A stretch of DNA of 64,000 bases, from the NCBI RefSeq assembly GCF_054482595.1, contig NZ_JBTHVH010000004.1. The stretch is one strand, 5' to 3'. The translations under genes and the position numbers were made by a program. The stretch comes from a plasmid. Numbering within the stretch: the stretch's first letter is position 1; each line of letters begins with the position of its first letter. Below the pieces are notes generated by a model that made no database searches, was not told the DNA's origin, and was given only the letters and a program-made list of their open reading frames with translations. This document shows, piece by piece, positions 27,462-49,808 of the stretch.

Positions 27462-28281
27462 GGCACTGTTGCAAAGTTAGCGATGAGGCAGCCTTTTGTC
27501 TTATTCAAAGGCCTTACATTTCAAAAACTCTGCTTACCAGGCGCATTTCGCCCAGGGGATCACCATAATAAAATGCTGAGGCCTGGCCTTTGCGTAGTGC
27601 ACGCATCACCTCAATACCTTTGATGGTGGCGTAAGCCGTCTTCATGGATTTAAATCCCAGCGTGGCGCCGATTATCCGTTTCAGTTTGCCATGATCGCAT
27701 TCAATCACGTTGTTCCGGTACTTAATCTGTCGGTGTTCAACGTCAGACGGGCACCGGCCTTCGCGTTTGAGCAGAGCAAGCGCGCGACCATAGGCGGGCG
27801 CTTTATCCGTGTTGATGAATCGCGGGATCTGCCACTTCTTCACGTTGTTGAGGATTTTACCCAGAAACCGGTATGCAGCTTTGCTGTTACGACGGGAGGA
27901 GAGATAAAAATCGACAGTGCGGCCCCGGCTGTCGACGGCCCGGTACAGATACGCCCAGCGGCCATTGACCTTCACGTAGGTTTCATCCATGTGCCACGGG
28001 CAAAGATCGGAAGGGTTACGCCAGTACCAGCGCAGCCGTTTTTCCATTTCAGGCGCATAACGCTGAACCCAGCGGTAAATCGTGGAGTGATCGACATTCA
28101 CTCCGCGTTCAGCCAGCATCTCCTGCAGCTCACGGTAACTGATGCCGTATTTGCAGTACCAGCGTACGGCCCACAGAATGATGTCACGCTGAAAATGCCG
28201 GCCTTTGAATGGGTTCATGTGCAGCTCCATCAGCAAAAGGGGATGATAAGTTTATCACCACCGACTATTTGCAACAGTGCC
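27462..28281 (-). mobile_element. IS26 copy 1 (820 bp)
   Basis: 14-bp terminal inverted repeats GGCACTGTTGCAAA at both ends; internal transposase identical in all five copies; no target-site duplication. Confidence 0.95.
27514..28218 (-). CDS. tnpA: IS26 transposase (234 aa)
   Basis: 'MNPFKGRHFQRDIILWAVRWYCKYGISYRELQEM...'; the track ORF includes a 6-codon upstream extension. Confidence 0.95.
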   Translation of the reverse strand: MNPFKGRHFQRDIILWAVRWYCKYGISYRELQEMLAERGVNVDHSTIYRWVQRYAPEMEKRLRWYWRNPSDLCPWHMDETYVKVNGRWAYLYRAVDSRGRTVDFYLSSRRNSKAAYRFLGKILNNVKKWQIPRFINTDKAPAYGRALALLKREGRCPSDVEHRQIKYRNNVIECDHGKLKRIIGATLGFKSMKTAYATIKGIEVMRALRKGQASAFYYGDPLGEMRLVSRVFEM

Positions 28282-38793: not shown

Positions 38794-39613
38794 GGCACTG
38801 TTGCAAAGTTAGCGATGAGGCAGCCTTTTGTCTTATTCAAAGGCCTTACATTTCAAAAACTCTGCTTACCAGGCGCATTTCGCCCAGGGGATCACCATAA
38901 TAAAATGCTGAGGCCTGGCCTTTGCGTAGTGCACGCATCACCTCAATACCTTTGATGGTGGCGTAAGCCGTCTTCATGGATTTAAATCCCAGCGTGGCGC
39001 CGATTATCCGTTTCAGTTTGCCATGATCGCATTCAATCACGTTGTTCCGGTACTTAATCTGTCGGTGTTCAACGTCAGACGGGCACCGGCCTTCGCGTTT
39101 GAGCAGAGCAAGCGCGCGACCATAGGCGGGCGCTTTATCCGTGTTGATGAATCGCGGGATCTGCCACTTCTTCACGTTGTTGAGGATTTTACCCAGAAAC
39201 CGGTATGCAGCTTTGCTGTTACGACGGGAGGAGAGATAAAAATCGACAGTGCGGCCCCGGCTGTCGACGGCCCGGTACAGATACGCCCAGCGGCCATTGA
39301 CCTTCACGTAGGTTTCATCCATGTGCCACGGGCAAAGATCGGAAGGGTTACGCCAGTACCAGCGCAGCCGTTTTTCCATTTCAGGCGCATAACGCTGAAC
39401 CCAGCGGTAAATCGTGGAGTGATCGACATTCACTCCGCGTTCAGCCAGCATCTCCTGCAGCTCACGGTAACTGATGCCGTATTTGCAGTACCAGCGTACG
39501 GCCCACAGAATGATGTCACGCTGAAAATGCCGGCCTTTGAATGGGTTCATGTGCAGCTCCATCAGCAAAAGGGGATGATAAGTTTATCACCACCGACTAT
39601 TTGCAACAGTGCC
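38794..39613 (-). mobile_element. IS26 copy 2
   Basis: Identical terminal repeats and transposase; boundary set by the fixed 52/45-bp offsets from the tnp ORF; no target-site duplication. Confidence 0.95.
38846..39550 (-). CDS. tnpA: IS26 transposase
   Basis: Identical to copy 1. Confidence 0.95.
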   Translation of the reverse strand: MNPFKGRHFQRDIILWAVRWYCKYGISYRELQEMLAERGVNVDHSTIYRWVQRYAPEMEKRLRWYWRNPSDLCPWHMDETYVKVNGRWAYLYRAVDSRGRTVDFYLSSRRNSKAAYRFLGKILNNVKKWQIPRFINTDKAPAYGRALALLKREGRCPSDVEHRQIKYRNNVIECDHGKLKRIIGATLGFKSMKTAYATIKGIEVMRALRKGQASAFYYGDPLGEMRLVSRVFEM

Positions 39614-39702: not shown

Positions 39703-40524
39703 TTACTTGTTGTGCGGCGTCGCAGACTCATTGAACAACCTTTTTGCCTGCGCAATTACAGTTCTCGGAAGCTCGATATTCAGAGGTTCTGTCACGCTCT
39801 TGAACAATTCGAGACTCCACGTCCACGTTTGATGATAGGCTGCACATAGTGCTCTTGGTTCTGCACTGCTTGTGCATGCCAGATAGCGATTATACGAGTC
39901 CTCCGAGATATCCTTTTCGAGCGCGCGTGAAGGTGTCGGCCAGTGGTCTGTTGCCCCTTCGTGGAGTCGAACCAGCTTGAGTAGGTTTTCATGTGCTTTG
40001 CTGAGCAAAGCCCAGGCGCGAGCGTACTCTCCCCGATTTAAAAGATTGGCCCCAAAGAGCATCAGGCTGATGAGGTTCAACACAAGCCCTTCCACCAGCG
40101 GCGCGCCTTCACGTATCGGGGGACCGCCCACGAGAGCGCTTGCGTACCTTGACAACTCTCCTGATCGGTCCAACAAAACAGCCGCCTCAAGCGAGGGAAA
40201 CCACCCATAGCCTTGCCAAGTGGAAATGACCGGTATGTCCGATTTTCGCATGAAATGGAATTCACCGCGAATGCCGTTTTCAAAAAGTGCGGTGTGGTGG
40301 CCGAAGTCGTCCGGAAAGTAAGCAGCAACCGGACTTACGGCATTAAGCCACGAGCGCTGATCGAAATTTTCAAAATGGTCATCCTGGATGAACACTGCGA
40401 ATTCGATATCAGAGAACTCGTCACCCTCTCCGATAGCAAATGAGCCGAACATCAATGCCGCGATTATTCGTGCATCCTCATGACAACCTTCCTTGAAGAG
40501 TTCGATCATTTTCAGTTGAAGCAT
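39703..40524 (-). CDS. lnu(F): Lincosamide nucleotidyltransferase Lnu(F)
   Basis: 273 aa 'MLQLKMIELFKEGCHEDARIIAALMFGSFAIGEGDEFSDIEFAVFIQDD...' matches recalled Lnu(F); second cassette position. Confidence 0.8.
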   Translation of the reverse strand: MLQLKMIELFKEGCHEDARIIAALMFGSFAIGEGDEFSDIEFAVFIQDDHFENFDQRSWLNAVSPVAAYFPDDFGHHTALFENGIRGEFHFMRKSDIPVISTWQGYGWFPSLEAAVLLDRSGELSRYASALVGGPPIREGAPLVEGLVLNLISLMLFGANLLNRGEYARAWALLSKAHENLLKLVRLHEGATDHWPTPSRALEKDISEDSYNRYLACTSSAEPRALCAAYHQTWTWSLELFKSVTEPLNIELPRTVIAQAKRLFNESATPHNK

Positions 40525-40589
40525 AGAAATATCCTTTTATTGAAGCCACAGATTATGAGGAAAGGTATACGCAGATTTTTGTTTTTTTT

Positions 40590-40655
40590 CGTCAGCACAA
40601 CGCCGGAGTTAAGCCGCCGCGCGTAGCGCGGTCGGCTTGAACGAATTGTTAGACA
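40590..40655 (-). other. attC (59-base element) of the aadA2 cassette (approximate)
   Basis: Imperfect palindromic region 'GTCTAACAATTCGTTCAAGCCGACCGCGCTACGCGCGGCGGCTTAACTCCGGCGTT' between the aadA2 stop and lnu(F). Confidence 0.5.
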
Positions 40656-41447
40656 TTATTTGCCGATTACCTTGGTGATCTCGCCTTTCACGTAGTGGAC
40701 AAATTCTTCCAACTGATCTGCGCGCGAGGCCAAGCGATCTTCTTCTTGTCCAAGATAAGCCTGTCTAGCTTCAAGTATGACGGGCTGATACTGGGCCGGC
40801 AGGCGCTCCATTGCCCAGTCGGCAGCGACATCCTTCGGCGCGATTTTGCCGGTTACTGCGCTGTACCAAATGCGGGACAACGTAAGCACTACATTTCGCT
40901 CATCGCCAGCCCAGTCGGGCGGCGAGTTCCATAGCGTTAAGGTTTCATTTAGCGCCTCAAATAGATCCTGTTCAGGAACCGGATCAAAGAGTTCCTCCGC
41001 CGCTGGACCTACCAAGGCAACGCTATGTTCTCTTGCTTTTGTCAGCAAGATAGCCAGATCAATGTCGATCGTGGCTGGCTCGAAGATACCTGCAAGAATG
41101 TCATTGCGCTGCCATTCTCCAAATTGCAGTTCGCGCTTAGCTGGATAACGCCACGGAATGATGTCGTCGTGCACAACAATGGTGACTTCTACAGCGCGGA
41201 GAATCTCGCTCTCTCCAGGGGAAGCCGAAGTTTCCAAAAGGTCGTTGATCAAAGCTCGCCGCGTTGTTTCATCAAGCCTTACGGTCACCGTAACCAGCAA
41301 ATCAATATCGCTGTATGGCTTCAGGCCGCCATCCACTGCGGAGCCGTACAAATGCACGGCCAGCAACGTTGATTCCAGATGGCGCTCAATGACGCTTAGC
41401 ACCTCTGATAGTTGGTTCGAAATTTCGATGGTCACCGCTACCCTCAT
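40656..41447 (-). CDS. aadA2: Aminoglycoside 3''-adenylyltransferase AadA2
   Basis: 'MRVAVTIEISNQLSEVLSVIERHLESTLLAVHLYGSAVDGGLKPYSDIDLL...'; preceded by the 5'-CS sequence '...AAAACAAAGTTAGACATCATGAGGGTAGCGGTGAC'. Confidence 0.9.
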   Translation of the reverse strand: MRVAVTIEISNQLSEVLSVIERHLESTLLAVHLYGSAVDGGLKPYSDIDLLVTVTVRLDETTRRALINDLLETSASPGESEILRAVEVTIVVHDDIIPWRYPAKRELQFGEWQRNDILAGIFEPATIDIDLAILLTKAREHSVALVGPAAEELFDPVPEQDLFEALNETLTLWNSPPDWAGDERNVVLTLSRIWYSAVTGKIAPKDVAADWAMERLPAQYQPVILEARQAYLGQEEDRLASRADQLEEFVHYVKGEITKVIGK

Positions 41448-41595
41448 GATGTCTAACTTTGTTTTAGGGCGACTGCCCTGCTGCGTAACATCGTTGCTGC
41501 TCCATAACATCAAACATCGACCCACGGCGTAACGCGCTTGCTGCTTGGATGCCCGAGGCATAGACTGTACCCCAAAAAAACAGTCATAACAAGCC

Positions 41596-41716
41596 ATGAA
41601 AACCGCCACTGCGCCGTTACCACCGCTGCGTTCGGTCAAGGTTCTGGACCAGTTGCGTGAGCGCATACGCTACTTGCATTACAGCTTACGAACCGAACAG
41701 GCTTATGTCCACTGGG
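41596..41716 (+). pseudogene. intI1: intI1 truncated after about 40 codons by IS26
   Basis: '[40 protein letters not shown]' then the IS26 inverted repeat. Confidence 0.85.
41683..41711 (-). promoter_or_regulatory. Integron cassette promoter Pc (weak variant: -35 TGGACA, -10 TAAGCT, 17-bp spacer)
   Basis: Reverse complement reads 'TGGACATAAGCCTGTTCGGTTCGTAAGCT'; the -35 lies 5 bp from the IS26 end. Confidence 0.65.
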
Positions 41717-42536
41717 GGCACTGTTGCAAATAGTCGGTGGTGATAAACTTATCATCCCCTTTTGCTGATGGAGCTGCACATGAACCCATTCAAAGGCCGG
41801 CATTTTCAGCGTGACATCATTCTGTGGGCCGTACGCTGGTACTGCAAATACGGCATCAGTTACCGTGAGCTGCAGGAGATGCTGGCTGAACGCGGAGTGA
41901 ATGTCGATCACTCCACGATTTACCGCTGGGTTCAGCGTTATGCGCCTGAAATGGAAAAACGGCTGCGCTGGTACTGGCGTAACCCTTCCGATCTTTGCCC
42001 GTGGCACATGGATGAAACCTACGTGAAGGTCAATGGCCGCTGGGCGTATCTGTACCGGGCCGTCGACAGCCGGGGCCGCACTGTCGATTTTTATCTCTCC
42101 TCCCGTCGTAACAGCAAAGCTGCATACCGGTTTCTGGGTAAAATCCTCAACAACGTGAAGAAGTGGCAGATCCCGCGATTCATCAACACGGATAAAGCGC
42201 CCGCCTATGGTCGCGCGCTTGCTCTGCTCAAACGCGAAGGCCGGTGCCCGTCTGACGTTGAACACCGACAGATTAAGTACCGGAACAACGTGATTGAATG
42301 CGATCATGGCAAACTGAAACGGATAATCGGCGCCACGCTGGGATTTAAATCCATGAAGACGGCTTACGCCACCATCAAAGGTATTGAGGTGATGCGTGCA
42401 CTACGCAAAGGCCAGGCCTCAGCATTTTATTATGGTGATCCCCTGGGCGAAATGCGCCTGGTAAGCAGAGTTTTTGAAATGTAAGGCCTTTGAATAAGAC
42501 AAAAGGCTGCCTCATCGCTAACTTTGCAACAGTGCC
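41717..42536 (+). mobile_element. IS26 copy 3
   Basis: Terminal repeats at both ends; opposite orientation to copies 1 and 2. Confidence 0.95.
41780..42484 (+). CDS. tnpA: IS26 transposase
   Basis: Identical to the other copies. Confidence 0.95.
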   Translation: MNPFKGRHFQRDIILWAVRWYCKYGISYRELQEMLAERGVNVDHSTIYRWVQRYAPEMEKRLRWYWRNPSDLCPWHMDETYVKVNGRWAYLYRAVDSRGRTVDFYLSSRRNSKAAYRFLGKILNNVKKWQIPRFINTDKAPAYGRALALLKREGRCPSDVEHRQIKYRNNVIECDHGKLKRIIGATLGFKSMKTAYATIKGIEVMRALRKGQASAFYYGDPLGEMRLVSRVFEM

Positions 42537-42964
42537 GTAAAGGCGGCCTTATCCACCATTTCCCGAACAAGCAGGCGCTAATATTCGCCCTGTTCGCGCG
42601 TCTGCTGGCAATCATGGAAGAAGCGATTACCGCGCTGATGCAACAGGATGGCGTGAGCTATGGCCGGTTTACCCGCGCCTATCTGAACTATCTGGCGGAT
42701 CTCACGGACACCCATGAAAGCCGCCAGCTTATGGTTTTGTCGCTGGCAATGCCCGATGAACCGGTGCTGCGCAAATGCTGGCGCGACTGGATGCTGGAGA
42801 AACTGGCGCAGGGCGATGAGCTGGATAACAGCCCAACCGGCACGCTGGTGCGCTACGCCGCTGACGGCATCTGGCTTTCGGAGTTGACGGAAGGGATCAC
42901 CATGAGCGCCGACCACCGTCGCGCGCTGGTTGACTCCCTGAATAAAATGACGCTTCCCGCGTGA
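42537..42964 (+). pseudogene. 5'-truncated TetR-family regulator gene (C-terminal ligand-binding part only)
   Basis: The reading frame continues from inside the IS26 end; no N-terminal HTH remains. Confidence 0.5.
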
Positions 42965-42983
42965 AGCACAGACTGAGGCCGCG

Positions 42984-43772
42984 ATGCGCTACAACATCAA
43001 TGCCCGTTTTATCTACGACGCCACCGACGGAACCCTGACGCTGCCGCAAAGCGATGAACCGGACAGCCAGCTATCCCTCACCGCCAGCGCCCTGTTTAAC
43101 TATTTTCTGCGCCATACCGAGATTGTCAGCCGGGAAGATGTTCTGAAAAAAGTCTGGGATGACAATGGATTAACCTCATCCAACAGCAATCTGAATCAGT
43201 ATCTCAGCATGCTGCGGAAGACCTTTCGCCATTACGGCGTCGATAACATCATCGTCACCGTCTCGCGCGGCTATTTGCAGCTTAATCCCGAGGTCATTAT
43301 CGAAGCGCTGGACGACGCGCCGCCGGTTTCACCACAACAGACGCCTGCCGAACCGCCGCCCGTTACGACAACGCCAGACGCACCGCGCTCCGCACATGCT
43401 CGCGGGATGTGCTGGTACATGGCCGGAGCCTGCTTGCTCACCATTGCCCTGCTTCTGGTTGCCTTCAGTCTGGTCGGCATCAGTGAATCCCAGCCTATCG
43501 CGCTGACCCGCCTCAGCCATAGCCAGTGCGAACTGCTGGCCAGCGATGAAATGCGACGTTCGGTCAGTGAAGAGTCCTACGGCAAAAACTTCGATGAGGT
43601 ACGCCAGCGGCTGAATATTGCCTGTAAACCCGGTGAACGTTTTCTTTTCTTCTACGGCGATCGGCTCGAAACCAACGGGCTGGGGCGCGTGTTCCTTGCC
43701 CACTGCGCCATGCATGAAGATAACCCGTTCAGCTATTGCGATAACTACTTTTACTACTCCTGGAAGCCGTAA
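42984..43772 (+). CDS. Membrane-anchored winged-helix (CadC/OmpR-like) transcriptional regulator
   Basis: N-terminal DNA-binding-like domain, Pro-rich linker and one hydrophobic segment ('MCWYMAGACLLTIALLLVAF'). Confidence 0.5.
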   Translation: MRYNINARFIYDATDGTLTLPQSDEPDSQLSLTASALFNYFLRHTEIVSREDVLKKVWDDNGLTSSNSNLNQYLSMLRKTFRHYGVDNIIVTVSRGYLQLNPEVIIEALDDAPPVSPQQTPAEPPPVTTTPDAPRSAHARGMCWYMAGACLLTIALLLVAFSLVGISESQPIALTRLSHSQCELLASDEMRRSVSEESYGKNFDEVRQRLNIACKPGERFLFFYGDRLETNGLGRVFLAHCAMHEDNPFSYCDNYFYYSWKP

Positions 43773-44290
43773 TGAGACTCGCGCCGCGTCCGTTCTTTGC
43801 CCTCTGCGTTCTGGTATTTATTGCCGCCGCCGCGTTTAGCGCCTGGCGGCTGCTGCCTGCCGACAACGCGGGTGTCATGAGCTGTTCCACTAAGGGCATC
43901 ATGCGCTTTGAGAACATGGACAAAGAGAACGTTAACGGCAATATTCACTTCAATTTTGGCGCGCAGGGTAAAGGCTCGATGGTGGTCGAAGGTTACACCG
44001 ACTCCGCCGCCGGCTGGCTCTACCTGCAACGCTACGTGAAGTTTACCTACAGCAGCAAACGCATCTCGGCCACCGAGCGTCATTACCGCATCAATCAGTG
44101 GGAATCGAGCGCCTCCTCGATTGATGAATCGCCGAACGTGATTTTCGACTACTTTATGCGCGAGATGTCCGACAGCCACGACGGGCTGTTTCTCAACGCT
44201 CAGAAGCTCAACGAAAAGGCTATCTTGCTCAGCTCTATCAATTCACCGCTGTGGATCTGCACGTTGAAATCCGGCAGTAAGCTGAACTAA
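43772..44290 (+). CDS. Hypothetical exported/membrane protein (172 aa)
   Basis: ORF with an N-terminal hydrophobic segment; start overlaps the upstream stop. Confidence 0.45.
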   Translation: MRLAPRPFFALCVLVFIAAAAFSAWRLLPADNAGVMSCSTKGIMRFENMDKENVNGNIHFNFGAQGKGSMVVEGYTDSAAGWLYLQRYVKFTYSSKRISATERHYRINQWESSASSIDESPNVIFDYFMREMSDSHDGLFLNAQKLNEKAILLSSINSPLWICTLKSGSKLN

Positions 44291-44294
44291 CCCG

Positions 44295-44711
44295 TCAATC
44301 AAAAAAGACCATCCCCTTGTAGGGGCGTTCGCGACAGGCGGCCAGCCGCTGCGCCAGATTCCCCACATGCAGCTCCAGCTTATGGCCGTCAGGGTCGAGA
44401 AAATAGTAAGACGCCCCTTCACTGCGGTTATCTTTCCATACCTCAGCCCCCGCCTGCGCCAGCAGAGCCACCACCCCGGCAAACTCTTCTTCCGCCACGC
44501 TGAAGGCGTAGTGGGTATAGTCGCTTTCCTGAGGGGGCGTTTTACGCCGCTGCTCATCCAGCGACAAGCACAGCCACAGCGCCCCACAGGAGAGATAGGC
44601 TCCGCTATCCCAGCTGGCGTGCAGGCGCATTCCAGGTAACTGCTGATAAAATGCCAGGCTTGACGCCAGATCGCTGACCGCCAGCGTCAGATGATTCAAT
44701 CCCTGCAGCAT
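44295..44711 (-). CDS. fosA3: Fosfomycin thiol transferase FosA3
   Basis: 138 aa '[54 protein letters not shown]...' matches recalled FosA3; ATG at 44711. Confidence 0.9.
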
Positions 44712-45033
44712 GACTTTTCCTCCCGTTATCAAACCCTGTTGTAAACTGTGATCGGCGACGCATCCCCTCCCGGCCTCACCTCATCACCGGCTAAAAAGCG
44801 CATTTTTTGCGTTTAGCCTGCCATCGGAAACCTGCGCCTCGCCACACTAATCCCCGCTCTATGTTACCCCTTTTTTGAAATCATTTAGCAATCCAATAAC
44901 ATTTCATCCCCCCGGAAAAAGCGGGCTAAAAATCGCCTTATTGAAGACCAAATCAGCACCGACATTACAGCATAAAGACATAAATAAACGCCCTAAAAAG
45001 ACTAAATCACAGAGCTATATCCTAAATAATTAC

Positions 45034-46594
<1,561 letters not shown>

Positions 46595-48988: not shown

Positions 48989-49808
48989 GGCACTGTTGCA
49001 AATAGTCGGTGGTGATAAACTTATCATCCCCTTTTGCTGATGGAGCTGCACATGAACCCATTCAAAGGCCGGCATTTTCAGCGTGACATCATTCTGTGGG
49101 CCGTACGCTGGTACTGCAAATACGGCATCAGTTACCGTGAGCTGCAGGAGATGCTGGCTGAACGCGGAGTGAATGTCGATCACTCCACGATTTACCGCTG
49201 GGTTCAGCGTTATGCGCCTGAAATGGAAAAACGGCTGCGCTGGTACTGGCGTAACCCTTCCGATCTTTGCCCGTGGCACATGGATGAAACCTACGTGAAG
49301 GTCAATGGCCGCTGGGCGTATCTGTACCGGGCCGTCGACAGCCGGGGCCGCACTGTCGATTTTTATCTCTCCTCCCGTCGTAACAGCAAAGCTGCATACC
49401 GGTTTCTGGGTAAAATCCTCAACAACGTGAAGAAGTGGCAGATCCCGCGATTCATCAACACGGATAAAGCGCCCGCCTATGGTCGCGCGCTTGCTCTGCT
49501 CAAACGCGAAGGCCGGTGCCCGTCTGACGTTGAACACCGACAGATTAAGTACCGGAACAACGTGATTGAATGCGATCATGGCAAACTGAAACGGATAATC
49601 GGCGCCACGCTGGGATTTAAATCCATGAAGACGGCTTACGCCACCATCAAAGGTATTGAGGTGATGCGTGCACTACGCAAAGGCCAGGCCTCAGCATTTT
49701 ATTATGGTGATCCCCTGGGCGAAATGCGCCTGGTAAGCAGAGTTTTTGAAATGTAAGGCCTTTGAATAAGACAAAAGGCTGCCTCATCGCTAACTTTGCA
49801 ACAGTGCC
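48989..49808 (+). mobile_element. IS26 copy 5, flanked by an 8-bp target-site duplication CTTCTGGT
   Basis: Identical 8-mer at 48981..48988 and 49809..49816 directly abutting the inverted repeats; the only IS26 copy with a duplication. Confidence 0.95.
49052..49756 (+). CDS. tnpA: IS26 transposase
   Basis: Identical to the other copies. Confidence 0.95.
   Translation: MNPFKGRHFQRDIILWAVRWYCKYGISYRELQEMLAERGVNVDHSTIYRWVQRYAPEMEKRLRWYWRNPSDLCPWHMDETYVKVNGRWAYLYRAVDSRGRTVDFYLSSRRNSKAAYRFLGKILNNVKKWQIPRFINTDKAPAYGRALALLKREGRCPSDVEHRQIKYRNNVIECDHGKLKRIIGATLGFKSMKTAYATIKGIEVMRALRKGQASAFYYGDPLGEMRLVSRVFEM

Follow-up and report, generated by a model that had tools for sequence, protein, structure and literature searches.

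The segment at positions 42537-45033 of the window (the whole 64,000-nucleotide stretch of DNA that was analysed) is very probably the classical 4.1-kb IS26-bounded fosA3 pseudo-compound transposon of type A, a Kluyvera-derived piece of chromosome that IS26 has made mobile and in which the open reading frames other than fosA3 are passengers. The module is already known from published work, which covers its structure, its Kluyvera origin and a circular intermediate. Among the acquired fosfomycin-resistance genes of Enterobacterales, fosA3 is the most widespread, with the IS26-bounded module as its main vehicle, and recognition of the module matters for resistance annotation and for the epidemiology of the present record.

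The segment measures 2497 bp and fills exactly the interval between two IS26 copies, located at 41717-42536 (left) and 45034-45853 (right). An earlier note on this DNA had placed a fosA3 module between direct IS26 copies at this position, which proved correct to the base. Both bounding copies are complete, with a length of 820 bp and 100% identity to each other, and they lie in direct orientation, tnp26 being encoded on the + strand in each. The left copy has 14-bp terminal inverted repeats and an intact tnp26, and shares 100% identity with each of the four further copies in the window; the IS26 transposase scores 275 bits against the NCBIfam IS6 family profile (cut-off 125). The five copies delimit a series of overlapping segments, and the module is one part of this array. 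The 8 bp outside the left IS26 (CCACTGGG) lie within a class 1 integron 5'-conserved segment, and the 8 bp outside the right IS26 (CGAGTGGG) lie inside blaTEM, which is truncated by this IS26 so that the leftover open reading frame matches positions 43-286 of the TEM profile. Chance is ruled out as the source of this arrangement by the 820-bp exact repeat and the 100% identity of the 2497-bp segment to many plasmids. A 4-nt inverted match (GTAA/TTAC) at the two inner junctions was considered as a footprint and rejected; it was treated as chance (1 in 256), because IS26 duplications are direct and 8 bp long, not inverted.

Within the segment, a TetR remnant, orf2 and orf1 are encoded on the + strand and fosA3 on the - strand, in convergent orientation, with 4 bp separating the stop codons of orf1 and fosA3. 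fosA3 is preceded by a spacer of 322 bp and followed by one of 1758 bp. The three + strand reading frames had been described as lying downstream of fosA3. They do lie beyond its 3' end, but on the opposite strand, and they are not co-transcribed with it.

The fosA3 gene (44295-44711, - strand) encodes a fosfomycin-inactivating glutathione S-transferase of 138 aa. The protein scores 325.2 bits against the NCBIfam profile NF000075 for FosA3/FosA4 (cut-off 275), with residues 1-138 of 138 covered, and is identical at all 138 positions to the FosA3 of PDB entries 5VB0 and 5WEP. Because the sequence is identical to that of the reference enzyme, all catalytic and metal-binding residues are present. 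FosA3, a glutathione transferase that depends on Mn2+ and K+, acts by opening the fosfomycin epoxide. At the DNA level the gene is 100% identical to genes annotated as fosA3 in many plasmids, and a fosfomycin resistance phenotype is documented for the identical gene (PMC10352792).

One representative genome per species was scanned for the segment. All 2497 bp of the segment are collinear with the chromosome of Kluyvera genomosp. 3 YDC799 (CP022114; 98.3% identity, one 1-nt gap) and with that of K. georgiana ATCC 51603 (93.5% identity), and every non-Kluyvera genus reached at most 80% identity to the segment. The order and orientation of the genes in the Kluyvera chromosomes are those of the module, namely tetR, a ToxR-like regulator, a FidL-like gene and a convergent fosA, and among the loci compared the convergent fidL/fosA arrangement occurs only in Kluyvera. 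At both junctions of the module, chromosome-like DNA gives way abruptly to an IS26 end, and the Kluyvera chromosome runs on past both. The earlier suggestion of a mobilised chromosomal segment is thereby borne out, as the neighbours of fosA3 do match a chromosomal fosA neighbourhood. A Kluyvera georgiana origin of fosA3 has also been reported (PMC7755807, PMC7782503).

In the Kluyvera georgiana group (YDC799, ATCC 51603), the chromosomal fosA(KG) locus has the same genes in the same orientation, and in YDC799 the FosA protein differs from that of the module at 2 residues, the orf1 product at none and the DNA at 43 nucleotides. Unlike the module, the Kluyvera chromosome lacks IS26 and its tetR is full-length; upstream of fosA it continues into a BMC microcompartment operon, and beyond tetR there is a gene for an IS110-like transposase. 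No exact donor (at least 99.9% identity) was found among the species-representative genomes scanned. Because of its 43 nucleotide differences YDC799, the best match, is a close relative of the donor and not the donor itself, and since the nearest chromosome is 98.3% and not 100% identical, the donor lineage is absent from the genomes scanned.

An early speculation had placed the source of the segment in a Klebsiella chromosome, on the ground that the 1758-bp spacer is 79% identical to K. pneumoniae 342. Klebsiella and Raoultella chromosomes do contain homologous tetR, winged-helix and fidL genes at 77-79% nucleotide identity, with a fosA gene nearby. However, this fosA lies about 2 kb away on the other side of tetR, so that the plasmid gene order is not reproduced, and the segment matches Kluyvera YDC799 over its full length at 98.3%. 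Identity and gene order together refute a Klebsiella origin, to which we attach practically no credence. The module very probably arose when IS26 captured 2497 bp from the chromosome of a member of the Kluyvera georgiana group, with one capture junction cutting tetR at codon 51 and the other falling 322 bp upstream of fosA.

The tetR junction has left a truncated TetR-family gene (delta-orf3, 42537-42964, + strand) that lacks about 50 N-terminal codons; the full-length homologue of Kluyvera YDC799 has 192 aa. Only TetR_C_28 (Pfam) is left and the N-terminal helix-turn-helix DNA-binding domain is gone. An in-frame TTG at 42524, inside the IS26 end, provides an artefactual start. The remnant, which the earlier note had recognised as a truncated TetR-like gene, is a pseudogene.

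At the other junction, a 322-bp Kluyvera-derived region upstream of fosA3 (44712-45033, - strand) ends at IS26. This region aligns to YDC799 and ATCC 51603 until 45033, beyond which the chromosomes continue and the window becomes IS26. A relaxed scan returned a candidate hybrid promoter that may read into fosA3 (45019-45046, - strand; 8/12 consensus match), with a -35 box (TTGCAA) in the IS26 terminal repeat, a 16-nt spacer and a -10 box (TAGGAT) in Kluyvera DNA. A stricter promoter/terminator scan of the module found no convincing fosA3 promoter and did not call the hybrid candidate. We expect that fosA3 would be expressed from the native upstream DNA that it has retained, possibly aided by the -35 box in the IS26 end.

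The segment is widely disseminated. It was found in 705 plasmid records; identity reaches 99% or more in 681 of these, and at least 80% of the segment is present in 330. The exact junction of delta-tetR with IS26 is present in 303 plasmids and that of the fosA3 upstream region with IS26 in 542. Identical segments and junctions occur across Escherichia, Klebsiella, Salmonella, Citrobacter and other genera, and in many replicon types. At least 80% of the segment is also present in 170 of 5426 complete E. coli genomes, including a chromosomal IS26-bounded copy. A phage collection contained no match to the module, so that carriage by phages or phage-plasmids is not indicated there.

The two intact reading frames beyond fosA3 were analysed for domains and topology. 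orf2 (42984-43772, + strand) encodes a ToxR/CadC/MarT-like membrane-anchored winged-helix regulator of 262 aa, with a Trans_reg_C winged helix at residues 29-97 (Pfam) and a single hydrophobic stretch around residues 141-170, in agreement with what the earlier note had read from the sequence. From the cytoplasmic winged helix the chain passes through a proline-rich linker and a single transmembrane helix to a Cys-containing domain in the periplasm. A search for homologues of orf2 returned generic "winged helix" names only and no curated function. orf1 (43772-44290, + strand), the 172-aa reading frame that had also been noted next to fosA3, encodes a FidL-like co-component. It matches Pfam FidL_like at 3.6e-41 and combines an N-terminal membrane anchor (hydrophobic segment at residues 7-25) with a periplasmic lipocalin-like beta-barrel and a conserved Cys pair. 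The start codon of orf1 overlaps the stop codon of orf2 by 1 nt (TAATG).

Judged by these features, orf2 and orf1 are predicted to form an intact ToxR/ToxS-type (MarT/FidL-like) co-component signalling pair. This family takes in Salmonella MarT/FidL, E. coli GrvA/FidL and YqeI/YqeJ, ToxR/ToxS and VtrA/VtrC (PMC9214523). With the ToxR/ToxS and VtrA/VtrC systems, orf2 shares the ToxR-like winged helix, the single transmembrane helix and the Cys-containing periplasmic domain, and orf1, as a FidL_like member, shares the ToxS/VtrC-like barrel with its conserved Cys pair; the overlap of the two genes is also common to these systems. Unlike them, orf2/orf1 is a plasmid-borne passenger that has been parted from whatever targets it has in Kluyvera. 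That the long-ignored orf1 and orf2 make up a complete ToxR/ToxS-like pair is a mildly fresh point.

Together with the TetR remnant, orf2/orf1 are chromosomal passengers, and the pair is unneeded for resistance because shorter module variants exist without it. The alternative, that the pair has been retained for a benefit to the module or its host, for example through control of fosA3 by convergent transcription or through regulation of host colonisation genes, appears unlikely to us. In its favour, both genes are intact and translationally coupled, the orf1 protein is identical to the Kluyvera copy, the version that keeps the pair is the commonest single junction type (the 303 plasmids mentioned above), and MarT/FidL, GrvA/FidL, ToxR/ToxS and VtrA/VtrC are known virulence regulators of the family (PMC9214523). 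However, about half of the segment-bearing plasmids have shorter versions, and in the published types B and C, with orf2 or orf1 truncated, resistance is still conferred. Moreover, the 100% identity across plasmids points to recent spread, so the intactness of the genes is uninformative about selection, and orf2/orf1 have no known target site or regulon.

We consider it very unlikely that orf2/orf1 are expressed in new hosts and either cross-regulate host genes there (the regulons of the paralogues MarT/FidL, GrvA/FidL and YqeI/YqeJ, or the native tetR-wHTH-fidL cluster) or modulate fosA3 by convergent transcription. The native tetR-wHTH-fidL cluster is present in about 6% of E. coli genomes. 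If the pair were active in new hosts, the resistance module would also be spreading a colonisation-related regulator. No study of an effect of orf1/orf2 in recipient hosts was found in the literature searched.

Returning to the module as a mobile passenger-bearing segment, we propose that homologous recombination between the direct IS26 copies or, rarely, Tnp26 could free a 3317-bp circle. This circle, consisting of one IS26 and the 2497-bp segment, would be a translocatable unit, which Tnp26 would insert preferentially beside another IS26 by the targeted conservative route, without target-site duplication. The module is also carried along passively by conjugative plasmids and as part of bigger blocks that IS26 bounds. 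Published work sets out how IS26 pseudo-compound transposons and translocatable units operate (PMC8722046), and inverse PCR has demonstrated a fosA3 minicircle derived from exactly the 322/1758-bp arrangement (PMC7385254). With this published minicircle and the occurrence of the identical segment and IS26 junctions in hundreds of plasmids, in many genera and in an E. coli chromosome, the claim that the segment is portable as a unit is supported.

The flanks of the module were inspected for traces of its route into the present site. An 8-bp duplication outside the IS26 pair is expected only with copy-in transposition of the whole structure. No such target-site duplication surrounds the pair, the two outer 8-bp sequences matching at 6 of 8 bases, which was taken as chance. 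IS26 pseudo-compound transposons do not need such a duplication, and both targeted conservative insertion and homologous recombination are compatible with its absence (PMC8722046). The plasmid collection was also queried with the expected empty site, assembled as a single IS26 with 250 bp of the outer flanking sequence on each side. This site (5'-CS/IS26/delta-blaTEM) was not found in one piece in any plasmid record, a result that gives no direct support to solo insertion at this position.

The missing duplication and empty site are also in line with the module having arrived not as a free translocatable unit, but in a larger block (IS26-fosA3 segment-IS26-delta-blaTEM), by homologous recombination at the IS26 and blaTEM/Tn2 sequences shared by two plasmids or by cointegrate resolution. 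The right IS26/delta-blaTEM junction is present in other fosA3 plasmids too, which suggests arrival within a larger block, and several of these plasmids (H38, H41, H42) match the window unbroken from the left IS26 through 60 bp of the truncated blaTEM. Moreover, the plasmid with the closest backbone (IncHI2A, from Salmonella) lacks the fosA3 module and has a complete blaTEM-1 in its position; the sequence on either side is otherwise 99.9-100% identical. On the other hand, the right-flank comparison across plasmids spans 60 bp only, and targeted conservative insertion beside a resident IS26 would leave the same footprint. We regard arrival in a larger block as possible, though not as the probable route. 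The element would be the same in either case, and the last step different.

Among published fosA3 environments, the module corresponds to type A (IS26-fosA3-orf1-orf2-delta-orf3-IS26), which reportedly goes back to Wachino et al. in 2010 and Hou et al. in 2012. Gene content, gene order and the direct orientation of IS26 are the same, and so are the 322-bp upstream and 1758-bp downstream spacers and the size of about 4.1 kb, with 100% nucleotide identity to many deposited plasmids. The module itself is without any difference; only the outer flanks are particular to the present record: within an IncHI2-like multiresistance region, the module is bordered by a class 1 integron 5'-CS and, at its other end, by a truncated blaTEM. 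The upstream spacer is 322 bp by direct count, as in the work that named the structure "IS26-322 bp-fosA3-1758 bp-IS26" (PMC7385254), and some reviews quote 316 bp. The classification into types A-E and the 322/1758-bp spacers have been described (PMC10352792).

The same holds for the wider class of IS26 pseudo-compound transposons, in which two identical direct IS26 copies bound a resistance segment and no 8-bp duplication flanks the structure, as is the case here. These transposons and their translocatable units were reportedly worked out by Harmer, Moran and Hall in 2014 and by Harmer, Pong and Hall in 2020. The present module, known here from its sequence alone, does not differ from them in any evident way.

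Five copies of IS26, each 820 bp and 100% identical, lie in the window (27462-28281 and 38794-39613 on the minus strand; 41717-42536, 45034-45853 and 48989-49808 on the plus strand) and bound segments that overlap in an array. Between the third and the fourth, which are in direct orientation, lie the 2497 bp from 42537 to 45033, exactly where the earlier note had accurately placed a fosA3 module between direct IS26 copies. The segment opens with a remnant of a TetR-family gene (42537-42964, plus strand), followed by a 262-aa ORF (orf2, 42984-43772, plus strand), a 172-aa ORF (orf1, 43772-44290, plus strand) and fosA3 (44295-44711, minus strand). The orf1 ATG shares one base with the orf2 stop codon (TAATG), and fosA3 converges on orf1, ending four bases from its stop. 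The contents are as described earlier, except that the three ORFs called "downstream" of fosA3 are all on the opposite strand to it. The spacers to IS26 are 322 bp from the fosA3 start and 1758 bp from its stop, and the module including both IS26 copies measures 4137 bp. The bases just inside each IS26 (42537-42540, GTAA; 45030-45033, TTAC) are reverse complements, so that the IS26 ends match in inverted orientation over 18 nt instead of 14. A chance match (1 in 256) is the probable explanation, and the pattern is at odds with the direct 8-bp duplications of IS26.

The 262-aa protein was used for a single scan of representative bacterial genomes, and the 38 loci that it yielded were compared with the 2497-bp segment by BLASTN. 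The suspected chromosomal derivation held: the segment aligned collinearly and over its full length with the Kluyvera genomosp. 3 YDC799 chromosome (98.3% identity, one 1-nt gap) and with K. georgiana ATCC 51603 (93.5%), and at about 80% or lower with every other genus among the 38 loci. In YDC799, a full-length tetR (192 codons) is followed by the regulator, the FidL-like gene and the convergent fosA, with BMC microcompartment genes next, upstream of fosA; the plasmid ORFs thus do have a chromosomal fosA neighbourhood. Gene order discriminates between candidate source genera. Kluyvera loci alone had the FidL-like gene and fosA as immediate convergent neighbours, and most genera besides Kluyvera, Klebsiella and Raoultella had no fosA nearby. 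Junction alignments switched cleanly from chromosome-like sequence to an IS26 end at tetR codon 51 and again 322 bp upstream of fosA. The 43 nt that differ from YDC799 are scattered along the segment and change two amino acids in FosA, none in the FidL-like protein, three in the regulator and one in the TetR remnant. Both fosA3 and fosA4 have been traced to K. georgiana (Ito et al., 2018; Rodriguez et al., 2018; as cited in PMC7755807 and PMC7782503), an origin that our chromosomal comparison reproduces.

Other fosA arrangements were also seen. In Klebsiella and Raoultella (loci L007, L009, L010, L012, L015-L019 and L033) fosA is on the opposite side of the trio, some 2 kb upstream of tetR, and in an Enterobacter sp. 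(L027) it is directly adjacent to tetR on that same other side; the conserved tetR-regulator-fidL trio and fosA have therefore been linked in two or more different ways. A native tetR, ToxR-like regulator and FidL-like cluster is found in about 6% of complete E. coli genomes (~320 chromosomes; for example L040, Rb-23 chromosome NZ_AP025677.1, 4850-6787). It is about 79% identical to window 42537-43321, lacks fosA and adjoins a BMC microcompartment operon, a synteny shared with Kluyvera, where fosA lies between fidL and the BMC genes. The fosA4 modules of E. coli plasmids NZ_CP100956.1, NZ_CP100877.1 and NZ_CP138424.1 (H103-H105) also contain the regulator and its FidL-like partner, 93-95% identical to the segment, a divergence equal to that of K. 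georgiana ATCC 51603 and consistent with separate captures from different Kluyvera lineages. In Citrobacter freundii pfosA3_CFR867, a 12.9-kb IS26-bounded fosA3 transposon retains an intact tetR-like gene (acrR) and genes beyond it (PMC11378647), which implies that this part of the Kluyvera chromosome was captured as a larger piece or independently.

The FosA3 protein scored 325 bits against the curated NCBIfam FosA3/FosA4 model (cut-off 275) and is identical at 138/138 residues to crystallised FosA3 (PDB 5VB0/5WEP). With strict consensus settings, no promoter for fosA3 was called. A relaxed scan found a -35 element, TTGCAA, in the IS26 terminal repeat and, after a 16-nt spacer, TAGGAT in the neighbouring Kluyvera DNA, directed towards fosA3; we infer a hybrid IS26/Kluyvera candidate promoter. 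At the other end, TetR_C_28 is the sole domain left in the TetR remnant. An in-frame TTG within the IS26 terminal repeat opens a 146-aa ORF (42524-42964) in which four IS26-encoded codons are fused to the TetR C-terminal domain. This is most likely an ORF-calling artefact; if expressed, it would be a DNA-binding-deficient TetR fragment.

The 172-aa protein matched Pfam FidL_like strongly (139.9 bits) and has a single N-terminal hydrophobic helix. The 262-aa protein has a Trans_reg_C winged helix (residues 29-97), a proline-rich linker that varies between orthologues, one hydrophobic helix (about residues 141-170) and a Cys-containing C-terminal domain. Orthologues from the fetched loci were aligned for both proteins, and both structures were predicted. 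C38 and C163 of the FidL-like protein were invariant, in agreement with the conserved disulfide reported for the family (PMC9214523). The "orf2/orf1" of the fosA3 literature is therefore a complete ToxR/ToxS-VtrA/VtrC-type co-component cassette of the MarT/FidL kind. The regulator adjoins its FidL-like partner in 37 of the 38 loci (L001-L038), from Enterobacterales to Aeromonas and Photobacterium; the barrel (FidL-like) protein is the more conserved (52-100% identity versus 42-99% for the regulator), and the regulator linker is highly variable. The fosA3 literature searched does not discuss orf2/orf1 as a ToxR/ToxS-type system, and plasmids and fosA go unmentioned in the co-component paper (PMC9214523). 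A gene map in one fosA3 paper carries the name "fidL". About half of the segment-bearing plasmids have shorter versions, and in published types B and C either orf2 or orf1 is cut short (PMC10352792); the signalling pair is therefore dispensable for resistance. That it is intact in identical copies is a mark of recent spread and carries no information on selection, and any role in recipient hosts is speculative.

The segment occurred in 705 plasmid records, 681 of them at 99% identity or more; 330 records held at least 80% of it, and many matched at 100% over the full 2497 bp. Escherichia (319), Klebsiella (211), Salmonella (114) and Citrobacter (24) were the main genera, with others besides. 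Junction-spanning queries found the exact junction of truncated tetR with IS26 in 303 plasmids and that of the fosA3 upstream region with IS26 in 542. The fosA3-upstream junction is nearly universal and the far end is repeatedly trimmed, in agreement with published types A-E and their 1758-, 1222-, 536- and 370-bp spacers (PMC10352792). At least 80% of the segment was present in 170 of 5426 complete E. coli genomes, and one E. coli chromosome carried the same IS26-bounded module.

At the present site, the left IS26 cuts the 5'-conserved segment of a class 1 integron fragment (39703-41716) that has, on the minus strand, lnu(F) (a 273-aa product scoring 604 bits) and an aadA-family gene. On the right (45854-46594) lies an IS26-truncated blaTEM without its first 42 codons (profile positions 43-286 left). 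No 8-bp duplication was found around the fosA3 IS26 pair (flanks CCACTGGG versus CGAGTGGG). Among the five copies, a perfect 8-bp target duplication (CTTCTGGT) flanks only the one at 48989, a sign of simple copy-in insertion there. The closest overall context, an IncHI2A Salmonella Derby plasmid, matches at 99.9-100% identity on either side and has a complete blaTEM-1 at the site without the fosA3 module. A query made up as an artificial empty site found no plasmid record with the empty-site arrangement. Since the junction of IS26 with truncated blaTEM beside the module is common to other fosA3 plasmids, the module may have arrived inside a larger block by homologous recombination, an alternative that concerns the last step only and not the identity of the element.

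That element is already known: it is the type A fosA3 module of Kluyvera origin, a textbook IS26 pseudo-compound transposon. The earlier note's reading of it as a mobilised, portable chromosomal segment is supported. Structures between direct IS26 copies are termed pseudo-compound transposons; homologous recombination between the copies readily yields a translocatable unit, a circle with one IS26, and Tnp26 places it beside another IS26 in a targeted conservative reaction without duplication (PMC8722046). The excised circle that the earlier note proposed to seek has been reported: a fosA3 minicircle was confirmed by inverse PCR for IS26-322 bp-fosA3-1758 bp-IS26 with IS26 in the same orientation (PMC7385254), which is exactly the structure of the module described here.
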